IMG/VR virus record: IMGVR_UViG_3300005512_002967
Span: 1 to 36,447 of that record
Origin: a virus
Taxonomy: Duplodnaviria > Caudoviricetes
DNA: 36,447 bases
Direction: 5' to 3' (one strand)
Part shown: in pieces, positions 4,465 through 31,601 of the stretch
How positions within the stretch are numbered: the stretch's first letter is position 1
Layout of the letters: each line of letters starts with the position of its first letter
Notes under the pieces: model-generated
The model's input: the letters and a program-made list of their open reading frames with translations, nothing else
Databases searched by the model: none
What the model was told of the DNA's origin: nothing
Translations under genes and position numbers: made by a program

Positions 4465-5709
4465 ATGGCAACTACAGGATTGTGGAACATCGGAGGATTT
4501 AATTTACCAGACTTTGGAATAAGTGAAAAATTAGGGATAGGACCAATCAACGCTAATGTTAACCCGTCACAAATGAGTCAATGGGAGACTGTTAAAAACC
4601 CGTCAACACAAACACCACTGCCAGTAGGAACAAAAGTCAGTCCAAATTATGGAGGAAGTGTTTTGGAAGGTCCAGTAAACCAACCAGATCAACAGACACA
4701 GTCGACACAACAATCATCTGGGGGTGGAAATAGCGGTGGCGGAAATTCTGGTGGGATTCCACCAGTTGATATGTCTAAGTATCAAGGTTGGACTGATCAA
4801 AACGCTATCAATGCAGACTGGGCTAACACATGGCAGTCTAAGATGAACCAATCTTCAGGTGGGCCAGACCAAGGCCAAATAAGAAATGAGATTTCTGCTG
4901 GATGGGATCAATACATTAACAGCCTTAATGACCAAATAGGAGGGTTACAATCACAAAGAGGTGCTCAAGAGGCTACCATTGGAAGTCAATACGGTCAAGG
5001 AGTTAACCAACTCAACCTCCAAAAAGAACAAGGGCTACAAGACCTTGGAAAACAAAAGGAGTCAGCACAACAGAACCAAGTTAAAAACTTAAGAGATATT
5101 AGTAGCAATATCAAAAACTCATTCATGGCTGGAAATAACTATCTAGGCTCTATGGGAGCAGGAGACTCAAGTGCTGCCAATCAGTACGCTTTTGCTTTAA
5201 CCAAGATGGGAACTCAACAAAGAAGTGATGTTATGCAGAACACAGCTAACATTATAAACGACATCCAAGGAAGAGAAACAAACCTTAACAATGTCTACAA
5301 CTCAGAGATTAACAACTTAGGATTTGAAAGAGATCAGGCTATAAACGGTGTTGCTCAATGGTTTGCAGACGCACAAAACCAGATTAAACAAATGCAGGCA
5401 CAGGGCCAACTTAATAAATCTCAAGATTTAGCTAACCTCTCAAAGGATATTTACAACCAAGCCCTAAAACGCCTTGATGATGTAAATAGCTATGCACAAC
5501 AGAAACAAGCAGCTCTTGATCAGTGGGCTATCAATCAATCCACAAACATCAATCAGGTTAAACAGAACTTGGCGGCAGTTTCTAATGTTTCCTATAACCA
5601 ACCACAAGCACAGGGATTAGTGGGAACACCAAGCGTTGATTCATCTGGGAACATGATAACGCCAAGGTTCTTTGGTGGAACAAATGAAAAAGATAGATTA
5701 TTTCAATAG
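4465..5709 (+). CDS. Putative internal virion (ejection) protein, Q/N-rich coiled coil
   Basis: Q/N/G-rich helical 414-aa protein directly before the giant protein. Function inferred from position and composition. Confidence 0.5.
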   Translation: MATTGLWNIGGFNLPDFGISEKLGIGPINANVNPSQMSQWETVKNPSTQTPLPVGTKVSPNYGGSVLEGPVNQPDQQTQSTQQSSGGGNSGGGNSGGIPPVDMSKYQGWTDQNAINADWANTWQSKMNQSSGGPDQGQIRNEISAGWDQYINSLNDQIGGLQSQRGAQEATIGSQYGQGVNQLNLQKEQGLQDLGKQKESAQQNQVKNLRDISSNIKNSFMAGNNYLGSMGAGDSSAANQYAFALTKMGTQQRSDVMQNTANIINDIQGRETNLNNVYNSEINNLGFERDQAINGVAQWFADAQNQIKQMQAQGQLNKSQDLANLSKDIYNQALKRLDDVNSYAQQKQAALDQWAINQSTNINQVKQNLAAVSNVSYNQPQAQGLVGTPSVDSSGNMITPRFFGGTNEKDRLFQ

Positions 5710-5721
5710 AAAGGAGGCATT

Positions 5722-8700
5722 ATGGCTTCCCTGAAAGACCTAAAAGATAGAATAAAGCAATATATAGCTCAATCTCCCAATAAAGTTGACGACAAACTTC
5801 TTGGATTTGGACAGAAGGCAGTAGGAACACTTAAAGGAATTGGTGGCAATCTTGCTAATGAGTTCAAACAGCAACAACAGATTAAATTTCAACCAGCTCA
5901 AAGAGCAATAAATTCTCAACCTGTTCAAGATTTTACAAGGTCGGCGTGGCAGGCAACACAAATACCAAAAGCTGGAAACATATTGCAGGCGGCAGGTAGA
6001 ACAGCACTCGGCACAGCACAACTTCCATTCTCACCACAAAACGCAGAAGTTAATCTACAAAAGGCCCTTGAGTTAAGACAAAAAACAGGAACAACTGGAA
6101 GCTATCAACAAGGGCTAATGCCAACACTTAAGACTCTTGGAAATGTTGGGGGAGCAACGGCAGGAACAATGTTAACAGTAGCTAACGTACCCAAAATGCT
6201 TACAGGTGCAGGGGCAACAAGGCTTGCCACATCATCTTTACTTGGTGGAGGATTAAATAAGATTATGGGAGGATCTTTTGCACAGGGGGCAGGACAAATG
6301 GCAGGACTAACACCAGCCATAAGTCAGTTTTCAGCACTAACCAATCCATATATAGCAAAATCACTTGCAAGACTTCCAATGGCAGGTGCGGTTGCATCAA
6401 AACTCCCTCCAGCACTAGCTAATGTTGCTCAAGGTGTAGGAATTGACATATCAACAGGACAAAAGACCACTCCATTAAGTATTGGAATTGATCTTGCAAC
6501 AGGGGCTTTGGGCGGATCGTCTCAATTTGCGGGGTTAAGATCGGTGGAAGCACCAAAAATAAAGATAGATAGTAAAAAGGTTGGTGTTGTAATGGATGCA
6601 ATTAGGTCTTTTAAGAGGGGGGACGTTCTTGATCCCTCAAAAAACAAGGTTGATAGAGAGTTTGTTAATACTGTCTATTCAATAGCTAGGGAATACTCCC
6701 CAGAAATGTTTAAGGATGGTAGGAATATAAACTATTTAAATGCCCTATCTATAGCCAATAAAGCGGTTGCGGAAAACATGGCTTATAAATACCCAGTTAC
6801 AAATCAAATACCAGCAATGGGATTGGTTGGAGATACTAAGCCTAAAGGACTAACACCAGAGGTAAACCCCCTCATCCAAGAAGCCCGTAAATATAAGAGT
6901 GCAGAGGAGTTTGTGAAGGCACAGGGGACACCTGTTTATCACGGGACACAGGCAAAATTTGATAAATTTGACAGCAAGTTTGCGACTGACGCAGAGGGAA
7001 GAATGTTAAATTTGGGTTGGGGAAAAGGTAATTTTTATTTCACAACAAAAAAAGGTGAAGCTCTAAAATATGCTACTAGAGAAAGAAGCGGCGAAGTCGC
7101 AAAGTTATATCCAAAAGGTGAACCTAATGTAATTGAAGCTTTTGTTGATGTTAAAAAGCCATTTGATATGGAAGTTGGAAAGAATGCTGAAAGGTGGCGA
7201 AAAGTTAGAGATGGATATTGGACTGACGGTGTTTCTGATTTTAATTATCATAAAATTCCAAAAGGTAAAACAAAAGCAGAAGCGTTTGTAGAGCAACTCA
7301 AAAAAGAAGGATATGACGGAATTGTTGACGGACAAGAAATAACTGCTTTTTCAGAAAACCAAATCAAAACCAAATCCCAACTAACAGACATCTACAACCA
7401 AGCTAAAGCACAACCAGAGGTAAACCCCTTAATAGCAGAAGCCCGTAAATATAAGAGTGCAGAGGAGTTTGTGAAGGCACAGCCAAAAGTATTTCATGGT
7501 GGAACATCTAAGGGTATGTTTAGCAAAGAAAAACAGAGGGTTGATGGAATATGGTTTTCAGACTCAAAGTCTACTGCGGCTGGATATGCTGGAACTAACG
7601 GAAATGTTACTGAGGCTGTATTAGACTTAAAAAATCCCAAAGTTTATCCCACAGAGGATAGTTACTGGTTAGATAAGACACGCAGTACATTGGAAAAACA
7701 AGGATATGACGGATTGATTATAAAAGATAAAGGACATTTGGCGGTATTTAGACCAGATCAAATCAAAACCAAATCCCAACTAACAGACATCTACAACCAA
7801 GCTAAAGCACAACCAGAGGTAAAGAGTGTGGGACAGCCGTTACAAGTTGGTGGTACGGGGATTATAGATCCTGTAAAAGCAGAAGAAGCAATGATTAGCT
7901 CCGTCAAGAGGGAGATGTATGACAAAGAGGATTTTAACTTATTTAACAGAGTTAAAACAATGGCAAGGTCTAAGTTATTCCAAGAAGGAGACATAGAGAC
8001 ATTGAGAAAAAAGAATGGCGGTGTGATAGATAAAGCAATAGAAAGAGTTAGGGAGGCAGAGCCAAATATTATAGATGATACTGAGGCTTTGGACTATATA
8101 ATAAACCTGCCCACACAAAGAGATACTGTTATGCCAAGGGAAAGTTTTGGAGTAGGCGATAGTGTTTATCTTGCAGAACCAACTCCCAAGACTTTGGAGA
8201 ACATAAAAATAAGAGACTTAAAAGCTGAGAAAAAGGTCGCTGATGCTGATTACAAGAACTGGCAAAGACAAGTATTCCAACAAGAGGGGGCTAGAAGTAC
8301 AGAACAAGGCAATTTAACCAACCAATTAAATAACTTAGGAAAGACAATAAGAAAAAATACGACTGCTGGCAATGTTCCAACTGAAGAAATAAAAGATATA
8401 TCTGGATTTAAAGCATATACAAAAGATATATACAGAAACTTTAAGGACGCTTATGGGAATAACTTCCCTAAGATTAAAAGTGCGTTGCTTGACCCGTTTG
8501 ATGAGGCCAAGGGAGATTTGTCAAGGTCATTTAAAAAGTGGTCAGATCGTGTAGATAGCGAAGTTGTAAAGGGATTTGGAATAAAGAAGGGGAGCAAAGA
8601 GAGTGCAGCCGTTCAACAGTTTGGAGAGGGTAAGGCAAAATATGAAGATTTAATATCTAAGTTTGGAGAAGCAAAAGCCAATAAAATTGTAGAGGCAGAC

Positions 8701-11085
8701 AAATGGTTTAGAAAAGAGTACGACCAACTTTTAACCGAGGTAAATGACACTATGAGAAAAATCTATCCCAACAATCCAGATAAGATAATTCCAAAAAGAA
8801 AAGACTACTATCGCCATTTTAGGGAAATGGGAAACGGGATAACGGGACTAATAAACATATTTGATAGCCCCTCAGGAATAGCGTCGTCTCTAGCAGGAAC
8901 AAGTGAGTACACAAAACCTAAGTCTAAGTGGTTATCTTTTGCACAAGAGAGGTTGGGTGACAAAACAGAGTTTGATGCTGTTGGTGGATTTTTAGATTAT
9001 GTAAAGGCGGCAGAATACAACAAGAAAATAGATCCCTTTACCAATCAATTTAGAAAGTTAGCAGAAGATCTGGCTTTTCAGACAGAAAAGGACCCTAAAA
9101 TAAATAACTTTATAGAGTATATAAACGACTTCGCCAACGATCTATCTGGAAAAACCAACCCTGCTGATAGATTTGTTCAAAAAGTAATTGGGAGGAAGCC
9201 AATGAGTGTTCTTAACTGGCTAAATAATCGTGTTAAAGCAAATGTAATCCTTGGCAATGCAAGCTCGTCAATAGCTCAGATATTTAACGTCCCACAGGGA
9301 ATAGCTGATGCTGGACCACAGAACGCAGTCAAAGGTCTTGGTTCGACTATTGCTAATTTATTTGGAGAAGCAACACCAATTAAAAAATCTAACTTCATAC
9401 AGGAGAGATTTGGTACTGATGTGTTTAATAAGTTTGATAGGGGGTTAATAAACAACACTCGTAATTTGGCTGCTTGGATGGTCGGTGCTTTAGATGAAGT
9501 GGGTACAAAATATATATGGAACGCCGAATATCAAAAAGCCATTTCTCAAGGGGTTCCAGACGCTATCAAATATGCAGATGACATGACTAGAAAAATGGTG
9601 GCTGGTAGAGGAATAGGTGAAGTCCCGTTAATCCAAAAGTCTAAAGTATTTCAACTGATTGCACCCTTCCAACTAGAAGTGTCAAACCTGTGGCATGTAA
9701 TGGGAGACTGGGTTAATGAAAAACAATTCGGTAAATTAGCCACTTTTGCTTTAGCTTCATTCGTTTTCAACAAGGGTGCAGAGCAGATAAGAGGAAATGA
9801 TGTCTCATTTGACCCAATACAAGCGTCTATCGATGCCTACAATGCCTACAAAGAAGAAGAAGATAAAAAAGTTGGAACTCTAAGAGCTGGGGGAAGATTG
9901 GCTGGTGAAGTCTTATCAAACCTTCCACTTGGACAAACCGTCGCTGGGATATATCCTGAATTTGGTGGCACTGTTGGCGATACAAAACTCCCAACAAGAA
10001 GCGATCTGTTCGGAGAGGGAGATCCAACAAGATTCGGGTCTGGACTACTGGCTCAAAAAGGCATCCAAGATCCGTTATATAAAATACTACCGTCTTTTGG
10101 TGGACAACAGCTTAAAAGAACTATTGAGGGGGTTGGTGCTACAAATAAAGGTTATTCGGAGTCAAAGACAGGAAAAGTTAGATTTCCAACAGAACAAGAT
10201 CCATTAAGAAATGCTCAAAGAGCTGTTTTTGGTCAATATTCAACTCCTAATGCTCGTGAGTATTTTGATAAAGACACAAGCGTTCTGGGAGATAAACAGT
10301 CGGATACATTCAAAAACTTAATGCAACAATCACCACAAAAGGCTCAAAACTATTACAACTCTATCATCTCTAAGAGAGAGGCAAATAAGAAAACATCACA
10401 AGCTCCTAAAACAGAAAAAACAGGATTGATGGAAAGGCTAACAGGTAAAGCACAGGCGGCAGAAGAAGCCCCAATGGCACTACCAGAAAAAGAAGATCAG
10501 GTAAAAGTCCTCTTCAAAGATGCTAAGAGTATTGTTGACAACTTTGAGGATAATATGACTAAAGCTCAGTATGGTTTAGTCTCTAAAACAGCAGAGGAAT
10601 ATCAAGCTGAGTACGATGAGGCAAAATCAATGCTTGACCGTATAAACAATGAAAAACCAGAGGCAGTTTATAACTTCGAGCTAGATGCCAACAAGTCAGG
10701 AGGGGGGAGAACGGTGGAAGAAAGGGCCAAGTGGACTTATGACTTATTAGACAAGACACCAGACGATAAACTACAGGAAAAGATAAATCAATTATGGGAG
10801 TCTAAAGTTCTAACAAGTGGATCTTCAGGCACAGCACAAGCGTTAAAAGATGAGTATGGTATTGATGTATTAAAGTACACAGGATCTAACAGTAAGATTA
10901 AAAAGTCACTAAAAATAGGTGGGTCAAAACTTAAGAAGTTTACAATGCCAAAACCTACCAAAATATCAACACCAGAACTTACCAAGAGCAAATTATCAAC
11001 AATGCCAAGCTTTAAGATCAAAGCACCACCTAAAATTAAGATGGGTGGAACAAGAAGAAGGGTGAAGTTGACAATACCGAAATAA
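5722..11085 (+). CDS. Large polyvalent ejection-type protein with two ADP-ribosyltransferase-like (ART-PolyVal-like) domains
   Basis: 1787 aa with a strong SD (AGGAGG). Two domains carry (Y/F)HG...(FYFT/IWFS)..A..YA...V.EA...K.P...GYDG...F...QIK. G/A-rich hydrophobic N-terminal region and Lys-rich C-tail. Confidence 0.7.
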   Translation: MASLKDLKDRIKQYIAQSPNKVDDKLLGFGQKAVGTLKGIGGNLANEFKQQQQIKFQPAQRAINSQPVQDFTRSAWQATQIPKAGNILQAAGRTALGTAQLPFSPQNAEVNLQKALELRQKTGTTGSYQQGLMPTLKTLGNVGGATAGTMLTVANVPKMLTGAGATRLATSSLLGGGLNKIMGGSFAQGAGQMAGLTPAISQFSALTNPYIAKSLARLPMAGAVASKLPPALANVAQGVGIDISTGQKTTPLSIGIDLATGALGGSSQFAGLRSVEAPKIKIDSKKVGVVMDAIRSFKRGDVLDPSKNKVDREFVNTVYSIAREYSPEMFKDGRNINYLNALSIANKAVAENMAYKYPVTNQIPAMGLVGDTKPKGLTPEVNPLIQEARKYKSAEEFVKAQGTPVYHGTQAKFDKFDSKFATDAEGRMLNLGWGKGNFYFTTKKGEALKYATRERSGEVAKLYPKGEPNVIEAFVDVKKPFDMEVGKNAERWRKVRDGYWTDGVSDFNYHKIPKGKTKAEAFVEQLKKEGYDGIVDGQEITAFSENQIKTKSQLTDIYNQAKAQPEVNPLIAEARKYKSAEEFVKAQPKVFHGGTSKGMFSKEKQRVDGIWFSDSKSTAAGYAGTNGNVTEAVLDLKNPKVYPTEDSYWLDKTRSTLEKQGYDGLIIKDKGHLAVFRPDQIKTKSQLTDIYNQAKAQPEVKSVGQPLQVGGTGIIDPVKAEEAMISSVKREMYDKEDFNLFNRVKTMARSKLFQEGDIETLRKKNGGVIDKAIERVREAEPNIIDDTEALDYIINLPTQRDTVMPRESFGVGDSVYLAEPTPKTLENIKIRDLKAEKKVADADYKNWQRQVFQQEGARSTEQGNLTNQLNNLGKTIRKNTTAGNVPTEEIKDISGFKAYTKDIYRNFKDAYGNNFPKIKSALLDPFDEAKGDLSRSFKKWSDRVDSEVVKGFGIKKGSKESAAVQQFGEGKAKYEDLISKFGEAKANKIVEADKWFRKEYDQLLTEVNDTMRKIYPNNPDKIIPKRKDYYRHFREMGNGITGLINIFDSPSGIASSLAGTSEYTKPKSKWLSFAQERLGDKTEFDAVGGFLDYVKAAEYNKKIDPFTNQFRKLAEDLAFQTEKDPKINNFIEYINDFANDLSGKTNPADRFVQKVIGRKPMSVLNWLNNRVKANVILGNASSSIAQIFNVPQGIADAGPQNAVKGLGSTIANLFGEATPIKKSNFIQERFGTDVFNKFDRGLINNTRNLAAWMVGALDEVGTKYIWNAEYQKAISQGVPDAIKYADDMTRKMVAGRGIGEVPLIQKSKVFQLIAPFQLEVSNLWHVMGDWVNEKQFGKLATFALASFVFNKGAEQIRGNDVSFDPIQASIDAYNAYKEEEDKKVGTLRAGGRLAGEVLSNLPLGQTVAGIYPEFGGTVGDTKLPTRSDLFGEGDPTRFGSGLLAQKGIQDPLYKILPSFGGQQLKRTIEGVGATNKGYSESKTGKVRFPTEQDPLRNAQRAVFGQYSTPNAREYFDKDTSVLGDKQSDTFKNLMQQSPQKAQNYYNSIISKREANKKTSQAPKTEKTGLMERLTGKAQAAEEAPMALPEKEDQVKVLFKDAKSIVDNFEDNMTKAQYGLVSKTAEEYQAEYDEAKSMLDRINNEKPEAVYNFELDANKSGGGRTVEERAKWTYDLLDKTPDDKLQEKINQLWESKVLTSGSSGTAQALKDEYGIDVLKYTGSNSKIKKSLKIGGSKLKKFTMPKPTKISTPELTKSKLSTMPSFKIKAPPKIKMGGTRRRVKLTIPK
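6855..7823 (+). repeat. Direct repeats bounding two in-frame ART cassettes
   Basis: 46 bp identical at 6879-6924 and 7437-7482; 65 bp identical at 7360-7424 and 7759-7823; 12-mer ACCAGAGGTAAA at 6855, 7413 and 7812. Confidence 0.95.
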
Positions 11086-11158: not shown

Positions 11159-11833
11159 ATGGCAATAGTTAAAACCCTAACCGAAGCAATCAGTTACATA
11201 AACAATCTCTATGAGATTGATTCTTCCCCACCATCTTCTGGAGAGGAAGATTATGAGGTATGGAAAGGACTACTTAATGTAGCCGTTAACCTATGGGAGA
11301 ATGAAGAGGGAGTAATGTGGAGGGAATTGTTTGTTAAGTTGGATGATGCTAGTACTGGAGATAAAACGGCAAGTGCTGGCGACTATTCGTATGATTGCCC
11401 TGATGACTTTGTAATGCCTGCTAGTGGATATGTATGGATTGGAGACAACACCAATAAAACAGCGTATAAAGTAATAAGACCAGACGAAGTTCAGTTAAGA
11501 GAAAATAATAGCGATAAATGGTGCTATTTCTTACAAGATGGTTCTCCAACACTAGAATTTAACCCTAATTGTCAGGTAGTTGCAGGAACAATAAGATATA
11601 ACTACTACAAAACAGCCACTGCCGTATCTTCTGGAACAGATGAGTTTGAAATGAGTGATCCAATGTTTGCAGTTTATTATGTTGTATCTGAATTAAAGAG
11701 GGAAGAGGGAGATACTTCGCCTGCTGTTATTGCCACCCAAAAAATGGAGGGAATGAAAACTAGAAACGAAGCAGTTCCTTTCTATCAGGAAAATTCAGTA
11801 ATTAACGATGCCGACATCGGGTTTGGAATATGA
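11159..11833 (+). CDS. Head-tail adaptor / tail tubular protein A-like
   Basis: Size, Y..P.DF motif, and position directly before the nozzle-like gene. Confidence 0.55.
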   Translation: MAIVKTLTEAISYINNLYEIDSSPPSSGEEDYEVWKGLLNVAVNLWENEEGVMWRELFVKLDDASTGDKTASAGDYSYDCPDDFVMPASGYVWIGDNTNKTAYKVIRPDEVQLRENNSDKWCYFLQDGSPTLEFNPNCQVVAGTIRYNYYKTATAVSSGTDEFEMSDPMFAVYYVVSELKREEGDTSPAVIATQKMEGMKTRNEAVPFYQENSVINDADIGFGI

Positions 11834-13839
11834 GACTTTCAGGAAGAACAACACAGGCAAAGGAAGCGAGGATAACAATAGATAAGTTTGATGGTGGATA
11901 TAACAACCTTGTTGATGAGGCTCGCATGGACACTAAGTTTGCTGTAGAAAGCAATAACATGATTCAAGTTCAGGATGGTATTTGGAAAACTAGATGGGGG
12001 CGTAAGTATTATGGTCCCGATTATCCTGCTACTCCCGATGGGGCTTCAGAATTTGTTAAGTCAGACGGAACAACTGAGCTTATTGTTGTATCAAATGGTA
12101 AAGTCTACAAATCTACAGATGGTGGAGCTATTTCTGAGATCACAGGGGCAACATTCACGGCTGGTGTTAAATGTTACTTTATGCAGATAACTGGATACTT
12201 ATATATTGCAAATGGAACAGACGACCTTGCAAGGTATGATGGAACAAACTTAACCAAGTACACTCAAATATCAGCTCCTGCCAATTTAACAGCCTCCCTA
12301 ACGGCTTCTGGACTAACTTCTGGTGTTTATACATACTACGCTCAAGTAACAGCCTTAAATACTATTGGAGAGACAGTTGGTTCAACCGAGGCTTCAATAA
12401 CTACCAACAAACTAAGGGATTCATGGACTGCTGGAACAGATCAGGTTGTTTGGAGCTGGGACGCCGTGTCAGGGGCTACTAGATACCAAATATATCTATC
12501 CGATCAGGCAGGATATGAAAACTTATTAGGTAATTCAGAGGTTACAAACTTTACAGACGATGGGACGGCAGACATTAACCCTTACATTGAGGTTCCTGAT
12601 GACAACACGACTGGAGCTCCTAAATTCACCTCAATGTGTGTTTCTTCTAACAGAATATGGGCGACAAATAACGCAAACGATATGTACAAGGTTTACTTCT
12701 CAGGAACAGGTCAGTTTATAGGTACATTCTCTGACTTTTATGGTGGTGGTTGGATCAACCTTGAAAAGGGAGGTCGTGAGACTCCTGTTGTTGTCAAGCA
12801 TTATCAGAGTGGTGCAGGAGACGGGAGAGCCACAGTTCTTGCAAAGACTCCTGATGGTCGTGGTGCTGTATGGCAGATAACAATTTCATCAGCCACAGTT
12901 GGATCATCAACATTCTCAGTACCTTCCGCTTCAAAGATTGTGGGTTCGTGGGGCACAGAAGCTGTTGGCGGTGTTGTTGCAACTGATAACGATATTGGAT
13001 TCCCTAATAGAAAAGGTTGGTTTTATCTCGGTCCACAACAAAACTATTACGGTATTCTTCGTACCCGTGAGATGAGTAGTAATATACGCCCATACTGGAG
13101 AAACCTAAATGGTGCTAATGTTAAAAACATTGTTGCCTATTACTACGATGCTAAGACTTTCATATCTGTAGCTACTGGAACTTCAGGAAATGATAGGATT
13201 GTGGTTCTTGACTCGGAGAAAAAAAACAACTGGTCTGTTGATTGGTCATTTGGTTCAAATGGATTTCTTGAGTATACAGATACGGCAGGATCAACGCATT
13301 TTTTGTCAATTCCCGTAAGCGGAACAAAACTTGAAGAAATATCAGAAAACTTCTTGGGAGATTTTGGAGGAGCTATTAACTACTCCTACATCTCACCGCT
13401 AATTCCTGTAAGTCAGAATAAAACTGATATTCTTAATTTCAGGGAGGCAGTAGTGGAACTTGGAAGACCTAAGGGGACAGTAAATTTTCAAGTTCTTGGT
13501 GTTGGTAAAAATGATGCCTTTAACACTATTGCGACAGCTACGGTTTCAAGCTTTGGAGCAAATACTGGTGTGGGAACTGATCTTGCAGGTGAATTATATC
13601 CATCAGAAACCAGAGCTAGTGCTAGTGGTGGTGCTGATAGTTGGGCAGTATATCTTCTTGAAGCTCCATCAGTATTCGCTCAGGCGACAACCAAAAAGGC
13701 AATTAAGAAGCGTGCAAAGCTATATTCACTACAATATAAGGTATACTCAAATACAGCAGACACACAGTATTCAATACTGTCATTACAAGCCAAAGGAAGA
13801 TTAGTAAATAGACGCTTACCTTCCAACTGGACAAATTAA
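11830..13839 (+). CDS. Tail nozzle / tail tubular protein B-like (P22 gp10-like) with an Fn3/Ig-like insert
   Basis: F.GG.N N-terminus, beta-rich propeller-like repeats, and a SAPANLTAS...WSWDAVSGATRYQIY Fn3-like segment. Confidence 0.6.
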   Translation: MRLSGRTTQAKEARITIDKFDGGYNNLVDEARMDTKFAVESNNMIQVQDGIWKTRWGRKYYGPDYPATPDGASEFVKSDGTTELIVVSNGKVYKSTDGGAISEITGATFTAGVKCYFMQITGYLYIANGTDDLARYDGTNLTKYTQISAPANLTASLTASGLTSGVYTYYAQVTALNTIGETVGSTEASITTNKLRDSWTAGTDQVVWSWDAVSGATRYQIYLSDQAGYENLLGNSEVTNFTDDGTADINPYIEVPDDNTTGAPKFTSMCVSSNRIWATNNANDMYKVYFSGTGQFIGTFSDFYGGGWINLEKGGRETPVVVKHYQSGAGDGRATVLAKTPDGRGAVWQITISSATVGSSTFSVPSASKIVGSWGTEAVGGVVATDNDIGFPNRKGWFYLGPQQNYYGILRTREMSSNIRPYWRNLNGANVKNIVAYYYDAKTFISVATGTSGNDRIVVLDSEKKNNWSVDWSFGSNGFLEYTDTAGSTHFLSIPVSGTKLEEISENFLGDFGGAINYSYISPLIPVSQNKTDILNFREAVVELGRPKGTVNFQVLGVGKNDAFNTIATATVSSFGANTGVGTDLAGELYPSETRASASGGADSWAVYLLEAPSVFAQATTKKAIKKRAKLYSLQYKVYSNTADTQYSILSLQAKGRLVNRRLPSNWTN

Positions 13840-24467: not shown

Positions 24468-24817
24468 GATACAACAAATACGGTAACAAGAAAACAGAAA
24501 TTGACGGCATTAAGTTTGACTCTAAAGCCGAGGCTAACAGATACCTAGAACTTTCAATGCTTGTTAAATATAAAAAAATTAAAGACTTGGTACTACAGCC
24601 AGCGTTTGAACTTCAACCGTCATTTAAGAAGGACGGTAGGACAATAAGAGCCATTAAGTATTACGCAGATTTTGCATATTACGACATGGGGCTTGATGAG
24701 TATATAGTGGAAGATGTGAAAGCGTCATTGACATTCAAGACAGAAGTATATAAAATAAAGAAAAAGATGTTTGAGTATACTCATCCAAATATAAAAATTA
24801 CAGAAGTATATGGTTAA
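24464..24817 (+). CDS. DUF1064-family PD-(D/E)XK nuclease
   Basis: NKYGNKK.EIDGIKFDSKAEA, LQP.FEL, Y.ADF.Y and VEDVK. Confidence 0.88.
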   Translation: MRYNKYGNKKTEIDGIKFDSKAEANRYLELSMLVKYKKIKDLVLQPAFELQPSFKKDGRTIRAIKYYADFAYYDMGLDEYIVEDVKASLTFKTEVYKIKKKMFEYTHPNIKITEVYG

Positions 24818-25469
24818 AAAATGTGAGTATTGTGAGAACGAGTTTAATGTAATGTACAAGTCTTCAAAAAAAAGATTCTGCTCTCATGTATGTGCCAACA
24901 GGAGTAGTTCTTTAGCTAGGCGTAGGAGGATAAAATTAAACTGTGTTGTGTGTGACAAGGAATTTGAGATCACCTATGGGGCTTATATACACAGGTCAAA
25001 GACATCCATACCAAGGTTTTGCTCAGTTAAGTGTTTATCCGCTGGGATGAAGAAGAAAGAATTATGGCGAAGTGTGTCTTGTGATAATTGTGGCAATGTG
25101 TTCGAAAAGCTTATCTGTAGAATTAACAGGAAAAACTTTTGCTCGATGAAATGTAGGCACTCTTTCGCGAAGGAAAGATATTTTGACCTTGTACCAAAAA
25201 GAAAAAAGACAGGATATTGGTATGAGAACGGGTACAGGATTTTATATGATGACAAAAAAAATGGAATTAAAGAACACCGTAATATAATGGAGACACATCT
25301 TGGAAGAAAGTTAAAAAAAGATGAAGTTGTACATCACATAAATGGAAAGAGGGATGATAACCGCATAGAAAATTTAGAATTACTATCATGGTCAGAACAT
25401 AGTTCATTGCATAGAACAAAAGAAAAATTTGAAGGTAAACACTTATTTGGTGGACACAATAACAATTAA
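24810..25469 (+). CDS. HNH homing endonuclease with three N-terminal CxxC...CxxxC zinc fingers
   Basis: EHR.IME..LGRKL...EVVHHING.RDDNRIENL. Confidence 0.88.
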   Translation: MVKKCEYCENEFNVMYKSSKKRFCSHVCANRSSSLARRRRIKLNCVVCDKEFEITYGAYIHRSKTSIPRFCSVKCLSAGMKKKELWRSVSCDNCGNVFEKLICRINRKNFCSMKCRHSFAKERYFDLVPKRKKTGYWYENGYRILYDDKKNGIKEHRNIMETHLGRKLKKDEVVHHINGKRDDNRIENLELLSWSEHSSLHRTKEKFEGKHLFGGHNNN

Positions 25470-28639: not shown

Positions 28640-28844
28640 TGCGGGACAGATTGTTTTAGACGGAGAGTTGAATTTGGGTGATGATGTTATAATCAGAATA
28701 GATGGAACAGTCACTAAAACAGAAGACCACGACAACCAAGACGGAACCGTTAACAGAGTCTTTACAGTTAAAGGAACCATTGCAGACATCCTTAATGCAG
28801 AAGGCAAAAAAATCACTAGGGAGGAAGTGGAAAGATACAGATGA
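28608..28844 (+). CDS. Hypothetical protein
   Basis: Beta-rich 78-aa ORF with an AAGGA SD. Confidence 0.55.
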   Translation: MKVNEKLLKVSAGQIVLDGELNLGDDVIIRIDGTVTKTEDHDNQDGTVNRVFTVKGTIADILNAEGKKITREEVERYR

Positions 28845-29229
28845 AGTAGTCGATAATTTAGTAAGAGCATTTGAAGACGGAGCCAATATATCTGAAGCTT
28901 GCCGTATCGCTAAAATTGACAGACAGACTTACTACAACTGGTTAGAAGACAGCGAAGAGTTTTCGACATTGATGACCGATTCTCAGAATTATCCCGATGT
29001 AGTAGCCAAAATGGTACTTGTAAGAGCTATAAAAAAGAGTGATATTGATGTTTCTAAGTGGTGGGCCGAGAGAAGGATGAAGAATGAATTTAGTACGAGA
29101 AATGAGATGACAGGAAAAGATGGCGAACATTTAATACCAAGATTTACAGTACAAACTAAAGAGGCAAAACAAAACCTAGAACAACTTTATGAAGGACCTA
29201 ATAGCTCAGACAACAAGAGGATTTCTTGA
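28795..29229 (+). CDS. terS: Terminase small subunit
   Basis: HTH ISEACRIAKIDRQTYYNW, W..ERR and E.TGKDG; directly upstream of TerL. Start could be 28702. Confidence 0.8.
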   Translation: MQKAKKSLGRKWKDTDEVVDNLVRAFEDGANISEACRIAKIDRQTYYNWLEDSEEFSTLMTDSQNYPDVVAKMVLVRAIKKSDIDVSKWWAERRMKNEFSTRNEMTGKDGEHLIPRFTVQTKEAKQNLEQLYEGPNSSDNKRIS

Positions 29230-31168
29230 TGGATATAGATACATAGTACACGAGGGGGGTACTAGAAGTGGTAAGACACACAGCATACTAACCTCGCTTT
29301 ACCATATAACCAACTCAAGACCATCTATAACATCAGTAGTATCGGAGACATTCCCCCACCTAAGAAAGGGTGCAATAAGAGATTACAAACGCATTTTACA
29401 ATCACAGAAGATGTGGGATGAGAAGTTGTGGAATAAGACAGACTCAGTTCACACAATAGCAGAAGACAGGTTGTTAGAGTTCTTTAGTGCTGATAACTCA
29501 GATAAGGTGCACGGTCCTGAAAGAGACTTCCTTTTTTTAAACGAGGCACAAAACATATCCTATGATATAGCAAGACACCTATTTGTCAGAACCAAGAAGA
29601 CTATTTTTATAGACTTTAACCCGACAAGAGAGTTCTGGGCTCACGAAGAATTAAAGAATGACCCTAGGTGCTTATGGGTACACTCCACATACAAAGATAA
29701 CCCCCACCTAACAAGTGAGCAAGTAGAGGAGATTGAGAAGAATAAAGGCAAGAAGCAATGGTGGAGCATTTATGGAGAAGGGAAGGTTGCCGAGAGTGAG
29801 GGGTCAATTTATAAAGGATGGCAACAGATAGATGAGATACCACACGAAGCACGGCTTGAAAGGTTTGGACTAGATTTTGGATATACCAATGACCCAACAG
29901 CGATTGTAGCCGTTTATAGATATAATGGTGGCTTTATTTTAGATGAAATTACATACCAGAAGGGATTAAGTAACAAGCAGATAGCAGACATCCTACTCAA
30001 TCAAGAAAGTAAGGCTTTAGTAATAGCTGATAGTGCAGAACCTAAGAGCATTGACGAAATTAGGAGTTATGGAGTTAACATCATGCCATCCACTAAAGGA
30101 CAGGGTTCAGTTCTTCAAGGAATACAGTTTGTACAAGATCAAAGGATAAGTATTACGAAGAGGAGTCTTAATGGCATCAAGGAATACCGTAACTACTTGT
30201 GGTTGGTTGATAAAGACGGCCATGTTACTAACACGCCTGATGTAGGCTTCGATCATTTCAATGATGCCTGTTTTACAGGAGATACACAGATAGAAACCAT
30301 TTTGGGCAATAAACAGATTTTAGACATATCAGTTGGTGATCTTGTTAAGACTTCATCTGGATTCAGAAGAGTTACACATAAACATAATAACGGTATGAAA
30401 CTAGTATCTGAATACTTGTTGCAATTAGATACGTCTAGTATTAAAATCAAGGCAACTAAAGATCATAAAGTAAAAACAAACAAGGGATGGATAAAGATTT
30501 CAAAATTAAAGTCAGGGATGACTCTCTACTTGAGCAATCATTTAACAATAGGAAATATAAGCTATACCGAGGAGAAAAATACTTTTCCTGCTCCAATAGA
30601 AGAATGCACAGGGACGTTTATGAGTTCTATAACGGAAAGATACCCAAAGGATTTCATGCACACCATAAGGACGGCAACGCATGGAATAACAGACCTGAAA
30701 ATCTTATGTTGGTTGAAAAAAATAAACATTTATCTGAACACTGTAAAAGACGTGTTAAAGAAAATCCAGAGTGGTTTATCAGATTTCAGAAGGCTGGTAT
30801 CAAAAAAGCTGTCTTTTGGCACAAATCACCAGAGGGGATTGAATGGCATAGACAACATGGAAAAAACTCTTGGAAGAACAGAACTACTTATAGAAAACTT
30901 ATCTGTGAACAGTGTGGGGGAGTTTATAAAACAAGACATGCGGGGGTCTCTAAGTACTGCCATCAAAACTGTAAAGCTAAAGCACTTAGATATAGGAGAA
31001 AGTTGGAGAGAGAACGTCTACGATCTAACAGTCGAGGAAGATCATGAATATTTTGCGAATGGGATATTGGTTCACAACTGTAGATATGCCATAACTTCAA
31101 TGATGGCAGTAGAAGACCACGAGGATGCACCAGACGACTCATCACTATTTAATGAAGGATTTTACTAA
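29189..31168 (+). CDS. terL: Terminase large subunit (PBSX-like), intein-containing
   Basis: GGTRSGKT, FLNEA, DFNP, GLDFGY.NDP and DH..DA/CRY split by the intein. Confidence 0.95.
   Translation: MKDLIAQTTRGFLDGYRYIVHEGGTRSGKTHSILTSLYHITNSRPSITSVVSETFPHLRKGAIRDYKRILQSQKMWDEKLWNKTDSVHTIAEDRLLEFFSADNSDKVHGPERDFLFLNEAQNISYDIARHLFVRTKKTIFIDFNPTREFWAHEELKNDPRCLWVHSTYKDNPHLTSEQVEEIEKNKGKKQWWSIYGEGKVAESEGSIYKGWQQIDEIPHEARLERFGLDFGYTNDPTAIVAVYRYNGGFILDEITYQKGLSNKQIADILLNQESKALVIADSAEPKSIDEIRSYGVNIMPSTKGQGSVLQGIQFVQDQRISITKRSLNGIKEYRNYLWLVDKDGHVTNTPDVGFDHFNDACFTGDTQIETILGNKQILDISVGDLVKTSSGFRRVTHKHNNGMKLVSEYLLQLDTSSIKIKATKDHKVKTNKGWIKISKLKSGMTLYLSNHLTIGNISYTEEKNTFPAPIEECTGTFMSSITERYPKDFMHTIRTATHGITDLKILCWLKKINIYLNTVKDVLKKIQSGLSDFRRLVSKKLSFGTNHQRGLNGIDNMEKTLGRTELLIENLSVNSVGEFIKQDMRGSLSTAIKTVKLKHLDIGESWRENVYDLTVEEDHEYFANGILVHNCRYAITSMMAVEDHEDAPDDSSLFNEGFY
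30269..31078 (+). mobile_element. Intein (270 aa) in the TerL nuclease motif
   Basis: Block A CFTGDT.I, block B ATKDHKV...GW, block F VYDLTVE..H.YFANG, block G VHN/C. Confidence 0.93.
30487..31047 (+). CDS. HNH homing endonuclease nested out-of-frame within the intein
   Basis: MHRDVYE...GKIPKG.HAHHKDGN..NNRPENL plus a CEQC...YCHQNC zinc finger; own ATG and TGA. Confidence 0.85.
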   Translation: MDKDFKIKVRDDSLLEQSFNNRKYKLYRGEKYFSCSNRRMHRDVYEFYNGKIPKGFHAHHKDGNAWNNRPENLMLVEKNKHLSEHCKRRVKENPEWFIRFQKAGIKKAVFWHKSPEGIEWHRQHGKNSWKNRTTYRKLICEQCGGVYKTRHAGVSKYCHQNCKAKALRYRRKLERERLRSNSRGRS

Positions 31169-31386: not shown

Positions 31387-31525
31387 GAATGAGGTTATAT
31401 CCTCACAGTTTGGCACTTTGACGCTTAGCTGTGAAATAAAAGATGGGGTTGTTAAGTACGACACAATCAACCTAGTTAAGAACAAACGCAAGAAATATAA
31501 CGGTCGTGAGCTTGACAAGATATAG
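31313..31525 (+). CDS. Hypothetical protein (YezD/DUF2292-like pattern)
   Basis: Helix followed by FGTLTLSCEIKDGVV and a basic tail. Confidence 0.5.
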   Translation: MTLEQSTLILNQLLSKNLPLHILVENEVISSQFGTLTLSCEIKDGVVKYDTINLVKNKRKKYNGRELDKI

Positions 31526-31541
31526 AATTGGTTGATATACT
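31512..31541 (+). promoter_or_regulatory. Putative sigma70 promoter of the head operon
   Basis: TTGACA-N18-TATACT with an extended TG. Confidence 0.65.
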
Positions 31542-31572
31542 CCCACTAAGCTAATACCGTATTAACGGACAT

Positions 31573-31601
31573 AAGGCACTCGCAACAGGGTGTCTTTTTT
31601 T
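31573..31601 (+). terminator. Intrinsic terminator-like hairpin just before the portal ATG
   Basis: AAGGCACT...GGTGTCTT followed by a T-run. Confidence 0.65.

Follow-up and report, generated by a model that had tools for sequence, protein, structure and literature searches.

We analysed an intein in the large terminase gene of a tailed-phage record of 36,447 bases (IMG/VR record IMGVR_UViG_3300005512_002967; the whole of this stretch is hereafter called the window). The record is 63% complete according to CheckV, and the genes for the small terminase subunit (terS), the large terminase subunit (terL), a portal-like protein and the capsid follow one another in it (Table 1). The intein occupies TerL residues 361–630, with junctions DHFNDA/CFTG and VHN/CRY (here and below a slash in a motif marks the junction or insertion point), and the spliced product is predicted to have 389 amino acids (aa; 659 minus 270). 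Inside the intein, on the same strand, lies a complete open reading frame (ORF) for an HNH endonuclease with a zinc finger, offset by 2 nt from the intein frame (intein frame 3, or −1). Neither frame is interrupted by a stop across 561 nt at 37% GC; the ATG of the HNH ORF is formed by GGA TGG (intein residues G73-W74) and its TGA by CAT GAA (H259-E260). The window thus holds a non-canonical intein with a complete, same-strand, out-of-frame endonuclease ORF. There is no in-frame endonuclease between blocks B and F, as a canonical bifunctional intein would have, and the intein is contiguous, the halves of a split intein being in separate ORFs. An earlier note, made from the sequence alone, had reported intact splicing blocks, an in-frame middle free of endonuclease motifs, the complete HNH ORF in a shifted frame and the openness of both frames; all of this held up, down to the exact coordinates of the intein and the ORF and the codons that form the HNH start and stop. 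Three other contigs carry the same sequence (99.98–100%) and are probably from the same population as the window and hence not independent.

Table 1 Features of the terL locus in the window
Feature	Position	Strand	Basis
Terminase small subunit	28702..29229	+	PHROG 4102, E 9.7e-16
terL, 659-aa precursor, PBSX-type large terminase plus intein	29189..31168	+	Terminase_3, Terminase_3C
N-extein, 360 aa, C-terminus ...DHFNDA	29189..30268	+	Alignable with intein-free TerL up to the junction
Class-1 intein, 270 aa (C1; T63-x-x-H66; D252; H259; H269-N270)	30269..31078	+	Pfam, motifs
Predicted Hint fold, N-terminal part, intein aa 1-89; aa 73-89 overlap the HNH start	30269..30535	+	AlphaFold2, Foldseek
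Intein-frame linker, aa 90-231, predicted mostly unstructured, stop-free	30536..30961	+	pLDDT, 34% mean pairwise identity
Predicted Hint fold, C-terminal part, aa 232-270; aa 232-259 overlap the HNH end	30962..31078	+	AlphaFold2
Nested HNH endonuclease gene, 186 aa, intein −1 frame	30487..31047	+	Pfam, model pLDDT 92, I-HmuI match
HNH start codon, last base of G73 and first two of invariant W74	30487..30489	+	ATG in 43/44, GTG in 1/44 relatives
HNH catalytic motif, HNH aa 39-81 (H59, H60, N68, N72, H81)	30601..30729	+	HNH_3 (PF13392), E 1.1e-14
Predicted four-cysteine zinc finger (C140, C143, C158, C162)	30904..30972	+	Invariant in 25/25 aligned proteins
C-extein, 29 aa, from the +1 Cys (CRY...)	31079..31168	+	Junction; Cys in 0/65 distinct intein-free relatives

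The intein frame matches the Pfam family Intein_splicing (E 8.8e-11), and no endonuclease family was matched in this frame by Pfam. A class-1 intein has Cys or Ser at position 1, TxxH in block B, Asp and His in block F, a terminal His-Asn, and Cys, Ser or Thr at +1. All 44 close relatives (a set dereplicated at 90%, and 55–65% identical to the window at the nucleotide level) have C1, T63, H66, D252, H259, H269 and N270, and the +1 residue is Cys; judged by its sequence, the window intein carries the class-1 residue set. AlphaFold2, run with the 44-relative alignment, modelled residues 1–89 and 232–270 confidently (pLDDT, the predicted score of the local distance difference test, >90 per block) and gave pLDDT <50 at residues 92–132 and 169–229. 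Foldseek aligned the model with gp41-1, RecA and other inteins at E about 1e-7. There were 42 matches at E<=0.001, and among the matches listed all were Hint domains, the fold that the intein is predicted to take. The intact motifs, the predicted fold and the need for an intact terminase together suggest that the intein splices. In a group of frame-2 elements at the second of the insertion sites described below (L050, L052 and L056–L079), block F position 4 is Cys (VYCL) instead of Asp, which we take to be a class-3 trait, and Cys1 is kept.

The HNH ORF covers intein codons 73–259; its first ~17 codons and its last 28 fall within the predicted splicing fold. Since intein residues 73–89 and 232–259 lie inside that fold, both ends of the overlap appear to be dual-function. 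The proposal in the earlier note that splicing discards an off-frame ‘junk’ translation therefore stands for the unstructured middle, but not for these two stretches. At intein residues 231–240, the intein frame has a conservation of 0.75 and the HNH frame one of 0.94, the latter value being inflated because KYCHQNC, a part of the zinc finger, served as a search pattern. In most relatives (31/44) the HNH ends eight codons sooner, its stop being formed by the Y-D or F-D codons of block F, and the H-E position used in the window is seen in 3/44. The protein encoded by the nested ORF matches HNH_3, and its structure model is confident (Table 1). Five catalytic-motif residues and four cysteines are invariant across all 25 aligned HNH proteins, with the search-pattern bias just mentioned applying to the zinc finger. 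The best structural match of HNH residues 1–91 is I-HmuI (PDB 1u3e), the C-terminal helices and the zinc finger being unmatched. A check for Endonuclease VII (EndoVII) returned HNH_3 only in Pfam, and the EndoVII fold was not among the structural matches listed, of which the top one was the weak match to I-HmuI.

The double openness was compared with chance by redrawing codons from the window codon usage while keeping the protein fixed (20,000 draws). Recoding the HNH gave a mean of 6.9 stops in the intein frame, with zero stops in 1 of 10,000 draws; recoding the intein gave a mean of 15.5 stops in the HNH frame and never zero. Both frames are open beyond chance. Selection was assessed in the 44 close relatives by codon-position variability and protein identity. 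Outside the overlap, the most variable base is intein codon position 3 (0.52 and 0.51), whereas inside the overlap it is HNH position 3 (0.50 versus 0.30 and 0.35). Protein identity across the same DNA is 51% in the HNH frame versus 34% in the intein frame. By these sequence measures, purifying selection acts on the HNH frame. The layout is kept in 43 relatives, and a lack of conservation in the HNH frame, which the earlier note named as an outcome that would speak against its proposal, was not what they showed.

The HNH start is almost always ATG in these relatives (Table 1). The codon before W74 ends in A in 43/44, across codons for Gly, Glu, Ser, Val, Thr, Gln and Lys, whereas A is the base at 43% (476/1105) of the four-fold sites in these inteins. 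A stop is found at most two codons upstream in the HNH frame in 21/44 relatives, and six codons upstream in the window. The upstream stops and the conserved ATG favour separate initiation over frameshifting, and the nuclease is likely made by internal initiation at the ATG at 30487. The earlier note had allowed for either route; of the two, these comparisons favour independent production. No Shine-Dalgarno site was detected at the HNH start in the window or in the close clade (median duplex energy +0.3). A strong Shine-Dalgarno match, judged by a crude duplex energy, is also missing from 27 of the 34 window genes, terL included; gene starts in the window are mixed, with a strong match in 7/34 and A/T-rich leaders in the others. 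No hairpin or stable structure was found over the HNH start (z 0.43), unlike what has been reported for some free-standing endonuclease genes. A promoter candidate upstream of the HNH gene (30419–30447, 9/12) was rejected, as 5 sites were found against 5.3 expected.

All of the 79 closest other TerL loci are intein-free and contiguous at the insertion site. Over the 150 residues before the site, the window extein is 85% identical to the best intein-free allele and nests among these alleles in the tree, whereas its median identity to TerLs carrying sister inteins is 37%, a pattern that indicates horizontal gain. The insertion motif of the family in terL is DHxxDAxRY, which presumably holds the last metal-binding Asp of the terminase nuclease, and three Cys sites are used within it: H/CxD (83 frame-3 and 10 frame-2 loci), Hx/CD (32 and 25) and DA/CRY (7 and 0). 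Another 30 loci fall outside this three-site assignment, many of them being degenerate versions of Hx/CD and DA/CRY. In the close clade, 37 elements sit at H/CxD, 6 at Hx/CD and the window element alone at DA/CRY, four codons from the site of its sisters; in the tree it groups with two first-site elements (99/86, starred), a placement for which the bootstrap has not fully settled. At the third-site residue, 65 distinct intein-free relatives have Ile, Val, Leu, Gly, Thr or Met and never Cys, and the nearest alleles read DHFNDA-L-RY or DHFNDA-V-RY, with no usable nucleophile at the first two sites. The window element would thus have moved by four codons and arrived with, or been fixed by, a new +1 Cys; descent of this Cys from a rare pre-existing Cys allele is possible. 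Comparison of the junctions for DNA microhomology behind the four-codon shift gave nothing decisive. The earlier note had proposed homing into the DH..DA/CRY site. Homing into terL fits the comparative evidence, but the usual site of the family is H/CxDAxRY, with DA/CRY as the variant in the window. Three nested elements (L250, L252 and L254) have flanks other than DHxxDAxRY, L250 lying after a DWGF motif, and the family may use further sites or host genes.

Relatives of the HNH were collected in a first viral scan, by scanning three collections with a profile, and from 13 annotated phage records. Each scan kept its best 80 loci, so the class proportions are not census figures, and host genes were recognised mostly by the flanking motif and only in some cases by a TerL profile. 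The first scan gave 82 viral loci (52 distinct), in which the HNH was always nested in a longer ORF, 46 in the phase of the window (3 being window copies) and 36 in the other. All scans together gave 335 loci, reduced to 275 distinct ones. In 187 of these, a contiguous intein with both ends identified contains the HNH out of frame (152 in frame 3 and 35 in frame 2); one intein end was found in 12 more frame-3 and 2 more frame-2 loci. In 39 loci the HNH lies between the halves of a split intein, with the C-half in the phase of the window in 32 (two of the split calls are doubtful, L267 owing to a contig cut and L171 owing to single-base indels relative to a 98% identical phage). The N-halves of split loci are mostly 92–104 aa long, and the end of the endonuclease overlaps the C-half frame. 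The HNH is free-standing in 22 loci; 8 are cut by a contig end or otherwise interrupted, 4 have an open second frame without an intein, and in 1 the HNH is fused to another protein. In this last locus (L243), the HNH relative is joined in frame to a non-terminase protein within a 480-codon open frame. Two nested loci have host ORFs far longer than the others (L003, 1086 codons; L061, 1010 codons) and perhaps hold a second intein. At E<=1e-30, the HNH family comprises 612 clusters.

None of the 275 distinct loci has the HNH in frame within a whole intein. A single-sequence search of longer proteins found no in-frame form among 146 candidates, a weak negative. A profile search gave 2 of 7386, one being a TerL-IntN-HNH fusion without IntC and the other a reductase whose HNH inteins are of another kind (28% coverage). 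Of 1.84 billion representatives, the best 150 include no protein with both intein ends and two that run into IntC, again a weak negative. The records nearest to the in-frame arrangement that the earlier note said would refute its proposal are the three fusions P0001, P0032 and P0106, discussed below; an intact in-frame intein is present in none of them.

Since resolution in the HNH trees is poor (15 of 132 branches starred), we claim only that free, nested and split forms are interleaved, not the direction of change. The minimum number of changes required by the starred branches is 3 for frame-3 nested forms, 2 for frame-2 nested forms, 6 for split forms and 3 for free forms; free-standing copies occur in scattered places across the tree (17 changes for 20 rows). 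The −1 frame is closed by 1–9 stops in all 22 free-standing copies, a result that is partly circular because the class was defined as not nested; two GC-rich free copies that were classed apart (L173 and L175) have an open second frame. Free-standing relatives adjoin terminase genes in 15 of 22 loci (12 by hidden Markov model and 3 by annotation), a location that would follow from targeting of terL by the enzyme and an encounter with inteins there. In an intein-free phage, a partial HNH relative lies upstream of terS (L107–L109:677-1087).

Four cultured-phage records (L163, L164, L165 and L166) carry a nested HNH inside terL, and all four annotate terL alone. In Lactobacillus phage CL2 (KR905067.1, L167:447-2675), the annotated terL ends in the intein N-half, the HNH gene comes next, and an unannotated intein C-half with the last terminase residues overlaps the HNH end, which makes a split-intein terminase in a cultured phage. 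No ATG was seen for the C-half of CL2, as in many of the 39 split loci. Clostridium phage phiCD119 (L171) is 98% identical to phiCDHM19 (L165), and its terL is fragmented by several single-base indels in the intein, which are possibly sequencing errors in the older record.

We favour, at a probability of about 80%, the reading that the window carries a mobile terL intein whose HNH gene is a separate, internally initiated gene in the −1 frame; its product is predicted to cleave intein-free terL, into which the element would then be copied. The element is real and conserved, and probably functional. The intact HH...N...N...H motif and the patchy distribution appear to fit a homing endonuclease of the I-HmuI-like PF13392 type. 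In the precursor, which is read as a single chain, the HNH DNA is read as a linker, free of stops, that joins the two halves of the splicing domain. The intein would then splice, removing the linker and restoring the 389-aa terminase. The overlap would be tolerable because splicing discards the linker, so that the intein frame need only avoid stops. Ribosomes would start at the ATG of the x-A/TG-G junction that precedes Trp74; no Shine-Dalgarno site would be involved, as is the case for most genes of this phage. By analogy with I-HmuI, which is intron-encoded, the nuclease would nick or cut the 3′ end of intein-free terL near DHxxDAxRY during co-infection, and repair would copy the element. 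The arrangement may go back to a mini-intein invaded, at the same motif, by a free-standing HNH gene that targeted terL. A broader proposal is that one HNH family at the last terminase-nuclease motif has been paired repeatedly with inteins (free, in either off-frame, or split, and practically never in frame) and that the element creeps between Cys sites one and four codons apart, here seemingly bringing its own +1 Cys; we offer this tentatively, with the odds somewhat against it.

Several observations count against a mobile, separately expressed nuclease. The match to I-HmuI is weak (Z 6.4, below the tool noise level of 8, with a root mean square deviation of 2.9 over 77 residues; Foldseek E 0.067). 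Intein and extein identities correlate across the clade (Spearman 0.45), so vertical descent also contributes, and as the nearest sister element is just 65% identical, recent homing is not established. The HNH is truncated in 1/44 close relatives, and these 44 sequences are related, so that 43/44 does not amount to 44 independent trials. P0001 is an in-frame TerL-IntN-HNH fusion without IntC, and P0032 and P0106 are HNH proteins running into IntC with the zinc finger lost, all three being single records.

Four alternatives were weighed, which even taken together are unlikely. HK97 gp74 is said to be an HNH protein of the terminase-associated packaging-cofactor type. The nested HNH could be such a cofactor, kept in terL for co-expression and not for homing: its family goes with terminase genes in the nested, split and free forms alike, the HNH is under purifying selection, and a study of brucellaphages raises the idea for them (PMC4422536). 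However, no relative was found in the 2.5-kb flanks of 76 of the 79 closest intein-free terL loci, the other three (one sequence) having a partial relative upstream of terS, and therefore close phages package without the HNH. The scatter of free-standing copies over the HNH tree and the resemblance of the N-terminal part to I-HmuI also speak against a cofactor, which we consider improbable. The location of the HNH in the −1 frame after an A-rich run, and the existence of one database protein (P0001) of just this composition, would suit a TerL-IntN-HNH fusion made by −1 ribosomal frameshifting. Such a product is very unlikely given the stops shortly before the ATG in nearly half of the relatives (0–2 codons in 21/44), an ATG kept at a synonymous position in 43/44 that frameshifting does not need, the lack of stable structure near the start, and 37 loci that use the other frame.

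The window copy could also belong to a homing family and yet be a spent passenger, which no longer cuts or whose target is mismatched to the shifted site. Its site four codons off that of its sisters, an HNH extending eight codons beyond the usual stop and a long end branch (0.39) would agree with decay, but the catalytic and zinc-binding residues and the start are all intact, and a one-residue insertion relative to its relatives keeps both frames; a spent copy is improbable. That two compensating indels in the assembly shifted an in-frame HNH would produce the same offset by error. The intein frame itself is open throughout, and the same offset recurs in 43 relatives at 55–65% identity and in four cultured-phage records; diverged relatives with this layout exclude an assembly error for practical purposes.

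The earlier note knew of no description of an out-of-frame endonuclease in an intein. The arrangement has in fact been in print since 2015 (PMC4422536) and appears in two bioRxiv preprints. Every annotated brucellaphage has, within terL, an out-of-frame HNH gene encoded by an intein (PMC4422536), and inspection of the brucellaphage Tb record (GenBank JN939331) confirmed this layout. Brucellaphages and the window share a same-strand, out-of-frame HNH in a large-terminase intein with both frames open. The brucellaphage HNH differs in family, with cysteine repeats first and the HNH motif last (the motif alone matches the window-family profile, E 2.6e-7), and its intein sits in the ATPase domain at NRAD/CVIIDD with the HNH in frame 2, whereas the window has frame 3 and DA/CRY. 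The brucellaphage case is an independent origin of the same layout.

Gosselin, Arsenault and Gogarten (bioRxiv 10.1101/2025.01.02.630785) describe EndoVII-like genes in frame 3 of actinobacteriophage inteins and expect elements of this kind to be common and overlooked. Their inteins resemble that of the window in strand, frame 3, an unstructured in-frame middle and the proposed entry of a free-standing endonuclease. Their enzyme is EndoVII-like and the second ORF typically lies outside the splicing domain, whereas the window enzyme is HNH_3 with a zinc finger and overlaps the splicing domain at both ends. None of their four named phages is among the 27 records matched by the window HNH, in a collection that may or may not hold those phages. 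In a cyanobacterial dnaX intein with a +2-frame LAGLIDADG endonuclease (bioRxiv 10.64898/2026.09.14.751524), selection likewise acts on the out-of-frame nuclease while the intein frame drifts; the host gene is cellular and the enzyme LAGLIDADG. The ShiLan domain, a hidden out-of-frame HNH in a phage methylase (PMC11855218), shares the stop-free host frame and the lack of a Shine-Dalgarno site but has no splicing domain, so that the host protein must tolerate the insert. In fractured genes with split inteins, the two halves flank a free-standing endonuclease gene (Dassa et al. 2009, PMC2677866). This is the form of the 39 split loci of the window family (2 doubtful), while the window itself is contiguous; the fractured-gene enzymes are GIY-YIG and Vsr-like, unlike the HNH of this family.

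A literature search, with most subscription journals and preprint supplements outside its scope, found no description of the I-HmuI-like HNH family, of the three adjacent Cys sites, of an HNH overlap into the splicing fold at both ends or of the series of free, nested and split forms. The additions made here are the family size, the overlap into the splicing fold, the series of forms and the shifted site. Published cases are few and the HNH family is large (275 distinct loci, even from best-80 scans). Because the nested HNH was left unannotated in all four cultured-phage records, inteins of this kind would be classed as decayed. With one frame released from constraint by splicing, they form a clean natural set for the study of overlapping genes in which short stretches are structural in both frames. 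Free, nested and split forms of one family allow phylogenetic and bench tests of intein origin and splitting, and if the series and the creep between sites are real, the family would lend itself readily to tests of how an intein acquires a new site and of how inteins become split.

Elsewhere in the window, long ORFs without a PHROG match include one of 1787 aa (5722-11085, +; none at E 1e-5) and those at 4465-5709 and 11830-13839. Just before the portal-like gene (31512-31596, +), a near-consensus sigma-70 promoter (11/12, extended −10) is followed by a terminator-like hairpin. A second HNH endonuclease gene, free-standing and 219 aa long, lies at 24810-25469 (+) and has some PHROG families in common with the nested HNH.

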